The notes under the pieces were generated by a model that was not told the origin of the DNA, did no database searches, and was given only the letters and a program-made list of their open reading frames with translations. A stretch of DNA of 64,000 bases from an uncultured Gemmatimonadaceae bacterium (GTDB lineage Bacteria > Gemmatimonadota > Gemmatimonadetes > Gemmatimonadales > Gemmatimonadaceae): assembly GCA_963829055.1 (NCBI GenBank), contig CAWHHI010000011.1, positions 288,001 through 352,000 on the forward strand, in the 5' to 3' direction. This document shows, one piece after another, positions 27,772-31,688 of this stretch. Position 1 is the stretch's first letter. Each line of letters starts with the position of its first letter. Position numbers and translations under genes: made by a program.

Positions 27772-28755
27772 TTAGGCGTCGGGACTGCTCGCGATCGAGC
27801 GCGCGAGTGGCCCCGGCGGCGTCAGTGACCGCGCATGCTCCTCCTTCGTGAATCGCCCGAGCAGGAGCTGGTACGCGACGAGGAGCTGAGCGATGGCCAA
27901 CGGATAGCTCTGACGTGTCTGGTTGCCATCCACGAAGTTTCCTGACCCACCGGGGAGCAACCGCTGCAGGTGCGCCCGCTGCGCCCACACCGCTTCCTCG
28001 ATGGCCACCGCCTGATCGGCATCGACCGATCCGCTCACCTCGAGAAACTCGGCGAGACGGCCGTGTTCGCGCCCCACGGCGAGGCGGAGGGCGGCCGCGC
28101 CGTTACCGCTGCGCGCGATCACGCCGCTGAGATCCGGATGCTCGAGCGTTGCACGCATGGTGAGCTGCACGTTCAACCGCTCGTAGTCCGCAGGCTGGCT
28201 TGGCGGATAGAACCGGACGACGAGATCAGCCCACCGCTTCTGAGGACGTATGTGCGCCGCCGAATCCACCTCGCGGCGCTCGAGCTCCGCGAGGACCTCG
28301 TCCGGCGTATAGCCCCGCTTCGCACAATCACGCGAGACCTTCCAGCGGCGTCGCAGCTCTTCGGGCGGATCGAGATACACCTTCACGTCGAAACACTCGC
28401 GCATGCGCGCCGAGTGGAACGCAAGCAGCCCTTCGACCAGCACGAACGGTTTCGGACGCACGTACTCCGGCGGGTCGAACGATCCGGTGCTGTGATTGTA
28501 GACGGGCTTGAGAATCGGATGCCCGTCCGCCAGCGCGCGGAGGTGCTGCTCGATGATGTCGATGTAGTTGCACGATGGATGCAGCGGCGTGATGCCGAGC
28601 TCTTTGCGACGCGCCCGATCATAGCGATGGTAGTCGTCGGTGCAGATCGTGGTGACCTGGTCCACACCGATCACCTGGGCGATGCCGGCAGTCAGCGTCG
28701 TCTTGCCGGCGGCGCTGTCGCCAACGATGCCGAGCATGATCGGGCGGTGTGGCAT
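27772..28755 (-). CDS. prk: phosphoribulokinase
   Basis: IMLGIVGDSAAGKTT Walker A, CTDDYHRYDR, ILKPVYNH..G, WKV.RD..KRG; last gene of the cbbLSX operon. Confidence 0.92.
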   Translation of the reverse strand: MPHRPIMLGIVGDSAAGKTTLTAGIAQVIGVDQVTTICTDDYHRYDRARRKELGITPLHPSCNYIDIIEQHLRALADGHPILKPVYNHSTGSFDPPEYVRPKPFVLVEGLLAFHSARMRECFDVKVYLDPPEELRRRWKVSRDCAKRGYTPDEVLAELERREVDSAAHIRPQKRWADLVVRFYPPSQPADYERLNVQLTMRATLEHPDLSGVIARSGNGAAALRLAVGREHGRLAEFLEVSGSVDADQAVAIEEAVWAQRAHLQRLLPGGSGNFVDGNQTRQSYPLAIAQLLVAYQLLLGRFTKEEHARSLTPPGPLARSIASSPDA

Positions 28756-28763
28756 CGGCGTCG

Positions 28764-29747
28764 CTACTCTGCGCCGTCGGCGGGCGGCGCGTCACGAAAC
28801 ACGCGACTCGCGCGAATGTCCGCCGCATCAATGCGCGACAGTTCGCGCGCCGGCACGGGTGCGGTTTGCCCGACGAGCCGGCTCGCCTGGCGCAGCTTCG
28901 CGCGGTCGATCGCGTTGCGCACGGAGCGCGCGTTCGAGAAATACGCCTGGTGCATCCGAAGCATGAGATATTCCCGCAACGTGGCGCGCGCTTCGTCATC
29001 CAGCTCGTACTGCTGTTCTCGCACCATCAACTCGGCGATTGCCATCAGCTCATCCGCGGTGAAATCCGGGAACTCGATGTGATGCGCGACGCGCGAGCGG
29101 AGCCCCGGATTGGCCTGAAAGAATGTGTCCATCTGATCTCCGTATCCCGCGAAGATCACGACGAGATCGTCGCGCTGGTTTTCCATGACGGCGAGCATCG
29201 TCTCGATCGCTTCCGCTCCGTAGTCGCGCTCGCTGTCGGCGCGGTAGAGGTAGTACGCCTCGTCGATGAACAAGACGCCGCCCATGGCCCGCTTCAGCAC
29301 CTCGCGCGTCTTCGGCGCGGTATGTCCCACGTACTGCCCGACGAGATCATCGCGGCCCGCGGTCACGAGGTGACCCTTGCGCACGTAGCCCAGGCGGTGG
29401 AGGATCGTCGCCATTCGTCGAGCGACCGTCGTCTTGCCGGTTCCCGGACGCCCCGTGAAGCTCATGTGAAGCGTCGGCTGCTCCGTTGCCCGCCCGGTTC
29501 GCTCGCGCAGCCGCGCGATGAGGAGCAGCGACGCGATCTCGCGGATGCGCGCCTTGACCGGAGCCAGGCCGACGAGCTCGCGATCGAGCTCCTCGATGAT
29601 GTCCGTCAGCCCCGCCGCGCGAAACGCGGCAGCAACATCGACCGTCGTACGGTCATCGAGTGCCACGCCTCCGGACAGCGCGGCAGCCGATTCGTTAGGC
29701 ATCGACGGCCCATCGCCAGGGACGACCGTCATTCGCGACGCGGTCAC
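28764..29747 (-). CDS. cbbX: red-type Rubisco activase CbbX (AAA+)
   Basis: [74 protein letters not shown]. Confidence 0.96.
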
Positions 29748-30190
29748 TCGTCGGGGGCCGATCCGTTGCCACCGAGGTAACGCGACTCGGGAGGGCGCTC
29801 GGTCGCGTACGCATGTACGGTGTATCGGATGCTGCGATCCGCAGTCTCCTGGCGTTCGAGCCTGAACCCGGGTTCGTGCGGTGGGCGGGCTACGATGAAG
29901 CTGAGCGCGGTCGTCTGCCGGCCGTACGCCCGATCGTACGCCGTGACTTTCACGTAGCGGCCGGGAAACGCGTGCGTACACGCGGCGAGCTCCATGAGGA
30001 GGCCGGCCGGGTCGCGGAGATCGAACATCGGCGTGCCCCACATCTCCCAGTACACGTTGCGCGGGTGCGGGTCGTCGGTGTGCTCAATGGACACCGGCCA
30101 TCCCTGATCGATGCAGTATTGCACCTGAGCCGTGATCTGGTCGACGCTGAAATCCGGGAGGAACGAGAACGTCCCCTGTGTCAGGCGCAT
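29744..30190 (-). CDS. cbbS: Rubisco small subunit, red-type
   Basis: [53 protein letters not shown] hairpin extension. Confidence 0.97.
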
Positions 30191-30236
30191 TGGCGGTCCT
30201 CCGGGAGGACAGAGTGGGCGTTAGGCATCGACATGC

Positions 30237-31688
30237 TCACAGCGGCACCGGCATCGCGACGGCGTCCGGCACGTCGGTGGACGTGAACTCGAACGTGATG
30301 TCCCGCCAGAGGTCGATCGCCTTGCGCAACGCCGGTGACCACCGCGCGGCGCGCTCGAGAATCTCCGGACCCTCCGCCAGGTAGTCCCGGCCCTCGTTCC
30401 GAGCCTGAATCATCGCCTCGACGGCGACGCGGTTCGCGGTCGCGCCGGCCGCAATCCCGTCCGGGTGGCCGATGGTACCGCCGCCGAATTGCAGCACGAC
30501 GTCTTCGCCGAGGTAATGCAGCAGCTGATGCACCTGCGCGGCGTGAATGCCGCCTGACGCGACCGGCATGACGCCTGGCAACGACGCCCAATCCTGCTCG
30601 AAGTACAGACCGAGCGTCGGGTCGGGGTCGATCTTGTTCTCGCGTAGCGTGCGATAGTAGCCGCGTACGGCGTGCGGATCGCCCTCGAGCTTCCCCACCA
30701 CCGTTCCCGCGTGGATGTGATCGACGCCGGCCAGGCGCATCCACTTGGCGATCACGCGGAAGTTGACGCCGTGATTCTTCTGGCGCGTGTACGTGCCGTG
30801 CCCTGCTCTGTGGAGATGGAGGATGACGCCATTGCGCCTCGCCCACTTCGCCATCGACTGGATCGCCGTGTAGCCGACGGTCAGGTCGATCATGATGATC
30901 ACGCTGCCGAGCTCCTTCGCGAACTCGGCGCGTTCGTACATCTCTTCCATCGTGCCGGCGGTGACGTTGAGATAGTGACCCTTGATCTCACCCGACGCCG
31001 CGACGCCGCGGTTGACAGCCTCCATGCAGTACAGGAAGCGATCGCGCCAGCGCATGAACGGCTGGCTGTTGATGTTCTCATCATCCTTCGTGAAGTCGAG
31101 GCCGCCGCGCAGCGCCTCGTAGACGACGCGGCCGTAGCTGCGTGCGGAGAGGCCCAGCTTCGGCTTCACCGTGGCGCCCAGCAGTGGCCGGCCGAACTTG
31201 TTGAGGTACTCGCGCTCCATGACGATGCCGTGCGCCGGCCCCTGGAACGTCTTTGCGTAATGCGGCGGGATGCGCATGTCTTCCAGCCGCAGCGATTTCA
31301 GCGCCTTGAAACCGAACACGTTACCGATGATCGACGACGTGAGGTTGGCGATCGACCCTTCCTCGAAGAGGTCGACGTCGTAGGCGATGTAGGCAATGTG
31401 CTGATCCGTGCCGGGAACGGCGTCCACGCGGTAGCATTTCGCCTGGTAGCGCTCGTAGCTCGTTAGGCGGTCCGTCCACACGACGGTCCACGTCGCCGTC
31501 GACGACTCGCCTGCCACGGCCGCGGCCGCCTCTTCGGGGTCGACGCCCTCCTGCGGCACGAGGCGGAACGCGCAGAGCACGTCCGAGTCGCGCGGCACGT
31601 ACTCGGGGTTGTAGTAGCCCATCTCGGCGTAGGGAGTAACTCCCGGAGCCCAGCGTCCCTTCGCCGCACGATCGCCAATCTTCGCCAT
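30237..31688 (-). CDS. cbbL: Rubisco large subunit, red-type (form IE-like)
   Basis: [70 protein letters not shown] all intact. Confidence 0.98.

Follow-up and report, generated by a model that had tools for sequence, protein, structure and literature searches.

Can aerobic anoxygenic phototrophs fix CO2 with energy from light? This open question is raised in concrete form by a Calvin-cycle gene cassette lying within the photosynthesis gene cluster (PGC) of an uncultured Gemmatimonadaceae bacterium, whose genome (G000; 7.78 Mb in 20 contigs) is 86% complete, so that absences from it are soft. We analyzed a 64,000-nucleotide stretch of this genome (C11:288001-352000, on contig CAWHHI010000011.1), referred to here as the window. 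The cassette consists of six genes, encoding a histidine kinase, a response regulator, CbbL, CbbS, CbbX and phosphoribulokinase (PRK). The interpretation we favor, with a probability of roughly 0.55, is that this form IE cassette works in aerobic photomixotrophy, after one insertion at the pufC/puhC junction. The papers cited by PMC number or DOI are represented here by parts of their text, and statements resting on them hold for those parts. The cassette and its neighboring features are as follows (a dot marks a row without an assigned strand):

27772-28755, minus strand: prk, PRK07429 score 383.7 (cut-off 236), non-proteobacterial phosphoribulokinase group
28764-29702, minus strand: cbbX, red-type activase, TIGR02880 score 474 (cut-off 459), start at 29702 or 29732
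29744-30190, minus strand: cbbS, red-type small subunit, PF00101 score 123.7 (cut-off 27)
30237-31688, minus strand: cbbL, form I large subunit of 483 aa, PRK04208 750.6 bits (cut-off 438)
31961-32007, dot: palindromic repeat in the regulator-cbbL spacer, found genome-wide (80 blastn matches in the genome)
32149-32796, minus strand: NarL/LuxR-type response regulator, cassette member
32793-33455, minus strand: HisKA_3 histidine kinase without a sensor domain, overlapping the regulator by 4 bp, cassette member
33487-33753, minus strand: ORF88, hydrophobic, 88 aa, probably a PGC gene following pufC

A first-pass annotation of the window had reported cbbL-cbbS-cbbX-prk as four intact genes with the Rubisco motif DFTKDDE. 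All four are unbroken minus-strand open reading frames (ORFs) scoring above curated cut-offs, and the motif occupies CbbL residues 198-204. Further motifs including SGG are present. With the catalytic lysine motif, the loop residues and an adjoining small-subunit gene in place, CbbL is a predicted catalytic form I Rubisco. The prk product matches PRK07429 above its cut-off rather than uridine kinase and is encoded in the cbb operon, so it is a predicted phosphoribulokinase. The cbbX gene lies downstream of cbbS and passes TIGR02880, as expected of the CbbX activase. The best solved relatives of the window PRK (27772-28755) are 9qko, titled a cyanobacteria-specific phosphoribulokinase, and 9qkn, titled a uridine kinase, both scoring far above canonical cyanobacterial PRK; our literature search found no paper on these two structures.

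In a quick tree, CbbL groups with sequences of Acidobacteriota, Methylacidiphilaceae, Chloroflexota and Actinomycetota and falls outside the proteobacterial form IC set (SH-aLRT 95 for the 25- and 31-row sets, with a proteobacterial set at 99 that excludes it). A second tree places it with Mycobacterium at 99.9/100. This pattern suggests that the window Rubisco belongs with form IE, a label that rests on the phylum list of PMC9561532 and not on a curated IE reference set. A form IC origin, as in soda-lake Gemmatimonadota, was considered and rejected, since CbbL lies outside the alphaproteobacterial IC sequences and prk is not proteobacterial. There was no Gemmatimonadota-titled record among the 80 CbbL matches listed from the contig scan.

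The four-gene operon of the first-pass annotation stands as far as it goes, but the cassette has six genes, with the kinase and regulator included. In a family sample of 400 Gemmatimonadaceae genomes scanned for CbbL and PuhC, form I CbbL occurs in 14, and the regulator is near cbbL in all 14 of them; the kinase is there too in 12, the other two loci both being interrupted by contig ends. In this family, form IE cbb operons are almost always accompanied by a sensorless HisKA_3 kinase and a NarL-type regulator (L011, L028-L040). There is no cbbR adjoining the cassette in the window, and the pair probably stands in for CbbR. From puf to prk all genes are co-oriented, with gaps of 88 and 31 bp leading from pufC via ORF88 to the kinase, and the pair may be transcribed by read-through from puf. 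No terminator-like site was seen on the minus strand from pufC to prk, in a scan that is weak at high GC; a promoter scan returned 0 sites, and an alignment of 8 spacers gave no convincing shared regulator-binding motif upstream of cbbL. ORF88 probably belongs to the PGC rather than the cassette: the otherwise similar PGC of genome G128, which lacks the cassette, has a hydrophobic ORF of similar size after pufC, the pairwise match being weak. That ORF88 is a frameshifted sensor domain of the kinase was rejected, since X1 and X5 read contigs cross it without a gap and relatives' kinases likewise start near the catalytic core.

Is the linkage to photosynthesis genes real? The prk stop codon faces that of puhC across 30 bp, and coordinates and strands agree with the earlier description of a block between the convergent puh and puf operons, in puf orientation and downstream of pufBALMC. 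A separate metagenome contig (L161) matches the window at 99.2% identity over 2250 bp of cbbX-prk-puhC-puhB, gap-free. Read contigs were compared from 4 runs (two soil, one rhizosphere, one sediment), one of which may be the source; X2 contigs bridge prk/puhC, and X1 and X5 contigs bridge kinase-ORF88-pufC. The synteny search that the first-pass annotation proposed recovered the prk/puhC junction twice: in L162, from another species (77-81% DNA identity), cbbL-cbbS-cbbX-prk faces puhC-puhB-puhA-lhaA, and in G298, from another genus, kinase-regulator-cbbLSX-prk faces puhC through lhaA on one 7.5 kb contig, the puf side being absent from that bin. The host is a member of the Gemmatimonadaceae, the family label borne at 87% identity by named relatives of its housekeeping aldolase, and both flanks match congeners in order, at 73-86% identity. 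An assembly or binning artefact could be suspected, since the assembly is rich in frameshifts, six of six congeners of G000 gave no match to CbbL, PufL or PuhC, and the regulator-cbbL spacer (its 32007-32149 portion, beside the genome-wide repeat) is spanned by no listed read contig. However, both outer junctions are bridged and kinase-regulator-cbbL is contiguous in G298. We therefore reject a chimera, given an independent contig, bridging read contigs from other studies and the same junction in a second species and a second genus, and regard any artefact as highly improbable.

The frameshifts themselves appear to be of the assembly's making. The extra base in pufM at 35834 is missing from contigs of three of the four runs, the fourth having no coverage there, and is an assembly error. 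As in pufM, the assembly shows a frameshift splitting each of the genes for HemF, HemY and heme oxygenase. Because the pufM base is absent from reads and even rpoB is split, the other frameshifts are probably errors as well.

PuhC exceeds its cut-off in 50 of the 400 family genomes. The PGCs of 46 were inspected (the other 4 have no CbbL match, and 7 of the 46 show less than 1 kb past puhC), and in 8 of these pufC lies 241-617 bp from puhC, as an empty site. G128 has the window's PGC gene order and a PufL 89% identical. PGC genes are found in 6 of the 14 CbbL-bearing genomes, 4 of which have a puhC-pufC interval without cbb genes. A separate phylum-wide sample of 400 genomes gave CbbL in 8 and PufM in one of the seven tested; that genome (G661) has form IC Rubisco and a proteobacterial prk, with no PGC gene in the 12 kb inspected. 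With three lineages seen, the arrangement is rare. G298's congeners, which we take to be in the family sample, are not among its CbbL or PuhC matches, and six of six gave no PRK match; five further PRK-like matches in G298 relatives have no form I cbb or PGC neighbor. In the sister family, L008 and L261 (G057, G519) carry cbbLSX between two prk copies. A second cbbLSX copy, L042 (G246:C6), has decayed; it contains stops and has low identity.

Trees of both CbbLSX (99.5/100) and PRK (98.9/100) show the three in-PGC cassettes as monophyletic, which indicates one insertion and hence a single origin of the cassette in the PGC. A Puh/LhaA tree places G128 as the sister of the window plus L162 (99.9/100) and leaves G298 outside; the cassette has therefore probably been lost in the line of G128, unless the PGC is a mosaic. 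RpoB had no match in G298 and six other genomes, and aldolase was used as the marker instead; this one marker does not join G298 to the window's genus but makes it the sister of a different one (99.3/100). Transfer of the PGC with its cassette between genera fits these data. Within the window's genus, parsimony favors neither gain nor repeated loss over the other.

The cluster is part of a larger variable region:

1-55097, dot: crt-hem-PGC-cbb region, starting about 320 bases before the window

Congeners G001, G002 and G005 lack this 55 kb region at the corresponding chromosomal position, and G003 and G004 lack most of it. Its flanks are only 27 bp apart in G005; in G001 and G002 the left flank is joined to window 62352-62365, and in G003 and G004 the carotenoid end is kept and followed by the right flank. 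The locus is a hotspot (window 62350-55098 flank; L271-L276), with four different join points in five congeners, of which two retain carotenoid genes and two also lack acylase and SusC-like genes. Such empty sites in close relatives are what a mobile island would leave. There is no tRNA at the borders, the longest shared border word is 10 bases with no terminal direct repeats, and the tetranucleotide distance ranks 43 of 129, no odd composition; GC and codon-position GC of the cbb block are in line with those of the remaining cluster. A general scan of the 63 window ORFs found no integrase or transfer gene, no family-directed search having been made. A recent foreign acquisition was rejected for want of a tRNA, direct repeat or compositional signal.

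The surrounding PGC and associated genes are:

3842-9486, minus strand: heme oxygenase, hemY, hemF, hemE, hemA (as assembled, each of the first three has a frameshift)
9600-14164, minus strand: bchP, bchG, ppsR, aerR (B12-binding)
14263-25869, plus strand: bchFNBHLM, orf109, acsF, lhaA
25951-27741, plus strand: puhA (two natural pieces), puhB, puhC (puhC at 27268-27741)
33842-35041, minus strand: pufC, reaction-centre cytochrome
35038-36271, minus strand: pufM, which the assembly breaks with one surplus base at 35834
36282-37652, minus strand: pufL, pufA, pufB
37752-48686, dot: bchO, bchZYXC, crtF, bchI, bchD, puhE
48736-50991, plus strand: bacteriophytochrome (PAS-GAF-PHY-PAS)
51010-54549, minus strand: hemL, hemB, hemC

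The PGC is complete and includes acsF, ppsR, aerR, a bacteriophytochrome, heme oxygenase and hem genes, and contig C5 carries hemA/E/C/B/L a second time. The earlier claim of an O2-requiring set (acsF, hemF, hemY, heme oxygenase) without bchE or hemN is borne out in the window, and a genome-wide search agrees: BchE has no match anywhere, and HemN has one partial match far under the cut-off. Since only the O2-dependent AcsF and HemF are found, pigment synthesis would need O2. The lack of bchE and the possession of BphP and BphO, by which PMC7844134 recognizes aerobic phototrophic Gemmatimonadota, both apply here. The puhA gene is two ORFs in the window and in essentially all relatives; the split is therefore natural, and an assembly error was rejected. 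The best matches of PufL among solved structures are PDB 9h19 and 7o0u, which we take to be Gemmatimonas structures. There is a single pufBA pair (37227-37652), versus two in several related PGCs (L263, L265, L266, L268, L322). On L136, titled an Acidobacteriaceae metagenome-assembled genome (MAG), aerR, a bacteriophytochrome, ppsR and a bchO-like gene lie beside cbbR-fbp-prkA-cbbLSX (58-12822); these PGC-adjacent cbb genes are of the proteobacterial form IC type, and the taxon label is unexpected (misbinning or transfer).

Could the rest of the cell run the cycle? Elsewhere in G000 are gap, pgk, tpi, a class II aldolase, class I fructose-bisphosphatase (FBPase), tkt, two rpe, two rpiB and transaldolase, so that the remaining cycle genes sought by the first-pass annotation, fbp and tkt among them, were found, but no dedicated sedoheptulose-bisphosphatase (SBPase). 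The SBPase step might be carried out by a bifunctional class I FBPase or circumvented through transaldolase. The sole fructose-bisphosphate aldolase candidate is a class II aldolase-like protein of 475 aa (G000:C16:1137359-1138783; L241:857-2284). It has no NCBIfam match, and nearly every member of the family carries it, the long form being present in 25 of the 27 genomes examined. Phosphoglycolate could be removed by way of glycolate oxidase subunits resembling glcD/glcF together with proteins bearing motifs of malate synthase and isocitrate lyase. As to electron donors, coxL makes CO a candidate, but NiFe hydrogenase and SoxB were not found in G000. The form I CoxL carries the AYRCSFR motif and is accompanied by cox accessory genes; multiheme cytochrome genes and an AMP-binding enzyme lie inside the cox cluster, between coxL and coxF/D/E (G000:C8:292500-298600; L244:6573-12580). 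An NAD-linked type formate dehydrogenase exceeds its cut-off, and PQQ alcohol dehydrogenases are present, one with a MoxJ-like/cytochrome c fusion directly 5' of a caa3 operon (G000:C11:614100-621100; L352:10123-17106). Terminal oxidases are two caa3 and one cbb3, with cydA and norB motifs also found; nuoD and pntB motifs are present, and cytochrome b of the bc1 complex was not found in G000. An operon resembling alternative complex III (ACIII) has family matches below cut-off, and we presume its identity from motifs and gene order.

Photomixotrophy would draw on these parts as follows. Having entered the convergent junction once, the cassette would have been inherited with the PGC in at least three lineages of at least two genera. 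It would bring only the two cycle-specific enzymes, the activase and the regulator, and housekeeping genes would supply the other steps. In the light, the type II reaction centre, PufC and ACIII would sustain cyclic electron flow, yielding proton motive force and ATP, with NAD(P)H coming from organic substrates spared from respiration, plus CO or formate. Rubisco would then refix CO2 and raise growth yield when organic carbon is scarce.

Several observations weigh against this reading. Cbb genes adjoin puhC in only one of the 46 other PGCs (G298), and the closest PGC, that of G128, has none. No PufL or PuhC match occurs in 8 of the 14 CbbL-bearing family genomes, and because the same cassette occurs outside PGCs it does not need one. 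A motif scan found no canonical PpsR box upstream of cbbL; such boxes precede bchG, bchC, crtF/bchI and hemC. A GlpX-type SBPase had no match in the genome with two queries, and pgk, tpi, tkt and coxL are frameshifted in an assembly of which only the pufM break was checked against reads. In Vulcanimicrobium alpinus, which has form IE Rubisco and a PGC, cbbL is not light-induced and autotrophic growth does not occur (PMC9758169). Much of this would also suit a chemo-mixotrophic cassette with its own light-independent regulation that settled in a permissive convergent junction, its linkage meaning co-inheritance only; other genes, too, occupy that interval in G153, G225, G191 and G158 (gaps of 1-7.5 kb). 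We consider this possible yet unlikely, since position, order and orientation are kept over two genera whose PRKs are only 64% identical, and the cassette is co-oriented with puf.

Distinctly less likely is facultative aerobic photolithoautotrophy, with ATP from light, reverse electron flow via complex I, CO or formate as the only donor and all carbon drawn from CO2. The form I carbon monoxide dehydrogenase (CODH), formate dehydrogenase, nuoD and pntB motifs and near-complete cycle point that way, as do the NiFe-hydrogenase match in G298 and the frequent co-occurrence of form IE with CODH or hydrogenase (PMC9561532). However, no hydrogenase, soxB or other lithotrophic donor was found in G000. 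Form I CODH exceeds its cut-off in three of six congeners, all without Rubisco, and CoxL falls below it in G298, so CODH goes with the genus rather than with the cassette; the atmospheric CO flux is small. Autotrophic growth is known from no cultured member of the phylum (PMC9426454). Purple non-sulfur bacteria use the Calvin cycle as a redox sink, and here too the cycle might dump excess reductant during low-oxygen photoheterotrophy. The cbb3 oxidase, cydA and norB hint at low-oxygen episodes, and Acaudatibacter with in-PGC cbb genes inhabits oxic and anoxic layers (PMC12700997), but a pigment pathway dependent on O2 makes this improbable for the window's host. Aerobic photomixotrophy remains our preferred reading. 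A bolder version, which we offer as speculation and doubt on balance, is that one heritable unit of PGC and form IE cassette moved between Gemmatimonadaceae genera and at a stroke equipped an oxygen-respiring soil heterotroph for both light harvesting and CO2 fixation, the cbb regulator being tied to puf and the donor being CO or formate: an aerobic, light-boosted trace-gas fixation in soil and rhizosphere.

These results point to a definite target for study, a lineage that is widespread in soil and rhizosphere and has a form IE cassette inside its PGC: among the 20 of 24 runs listed with part of the stretch, 12 are from soil, 7 from rhizosphere and 1 from freshwater sediment (17 studies). They also bring together bacteriochlorophyll phototrophy and form IE fixation linked to trace gases, which as energy strategies in soil are mostly considered separately. 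Natural controls exist as well, namely this PGC where it lacks the cassette, this cassette in genomes that lack a PGC, and congeners with neither.

How new is the arrangement? A PGC with Rubisco and PRK in Gemmatimonadota was already described (PMC6704655, PMC6748926, PMC10581226), with further accounts of PGC and Calvin cycle in the phylum in PMC9426454, PMC8547001 and PMC8779627. Aerobic anoxygenic phototrophs with a Calvin cycle also include strain B3 (10.1101/2021.04.29.441244), Myxococcota (PMC10576062), Tardiphaga (PMC7701988) and V. alpinus (PMC9758169), and cbb genes inside a PGC are mentioned second-hand for Blastochloris (PMC9758169). In its consulted parts, a phylum survey records no pufL/M in soil Gemmatimonadota MAGs and lists form I Rubisco as IC/ID, form IE being absent from its listed reference types (PMC10581226); habitat and Rubisco form therefore extend what is in print. 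One glacier-soil MAG is scored puh+, Rubisco+ and puf-, its linkage uncommented in the portion available (PMC7844134). Our literature search, which excluded figures, supplements and subscription papers, found no account of cbb genes inside a Gemmatimonadota PGC; a prior mention is possible, since the PGC maps of PMC8547001, PMC10581226 and PMC7844134 lay outside it. The first-pass annotation had seen a linked light-harvesting and CO2-fixation island, a candidate photo(mixo/auto)troph whose novelty rested on the in-PGC placement. Its linkage and aerobic gene set hold up, and a Gemmatimonadaceae host, the remaining cycle enzymes elsewhere in the genome and CO as a candidate inorganic donor add to its case, but its novelty was overstated: with Acaudatibacter and Blastochloris published, what is new about the arrangement is confined to this phylum and Rubisco form. 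It did not register the form IE affiliation, the kinase-regulator pair, the second genus or the empty sites.

Among known systems, the Gemmatimonas-type PGC shares with the window acsF between bchM and lhaA and a split puhA, whereas neither prk nor form I Rubisco occurs in cultured Gemmatimonas (PMC7844134). The soda-lake Gemmatimonadota MAGs resemble it in phylum, type II reaction centre, Rubisco with PRK and aerobic oxidases but differ in their alphaproteobacterial form IC, rbcS-rbcL-prk order and assignment to order SG8-23, and the accessible text of both papers states no cbb placement inside the PGC (PMC6748926, PMC6704655). V. alpinus WC8-2 likewise combines aerobic anoxygenic phototrophy with a PRK and a form IE Rubisco, but it belongs to another phylum, and the gene embedded in its PGC is a Rubisco-like one of form IV (PMC9758169). 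The form IE cbbL-cbbS-cbbX-prk operons of Acidobacteriota, Verrucomicrobiota, Actinomycetota and Chloroflexota share clade and core order with the cassette yet are linked to trace-gas chemosynthesis and not to a PGC, and Gemmatimonadota are not among the eight form IE phyla named in the sections consulted (PMC9561532). A NarL-type regulator and kinase are often near these operons, too. The closest parallel in gene placement, Acaudatibacter (Caulobacterales), also respires aerobically and carries cbbLS and cbbX inside its PGC, its photoautotrophic potential having been deduced from MAGs only; it is an Alphaproteobacterium of stratified lakes with LH2 and cbbY, while the window, from a member of the Gemmatimonadaceae, has a form IE Rubisco, a non-proteobacterial PRK and a two-component regulator in a six-gene cassette (PMC12700997).

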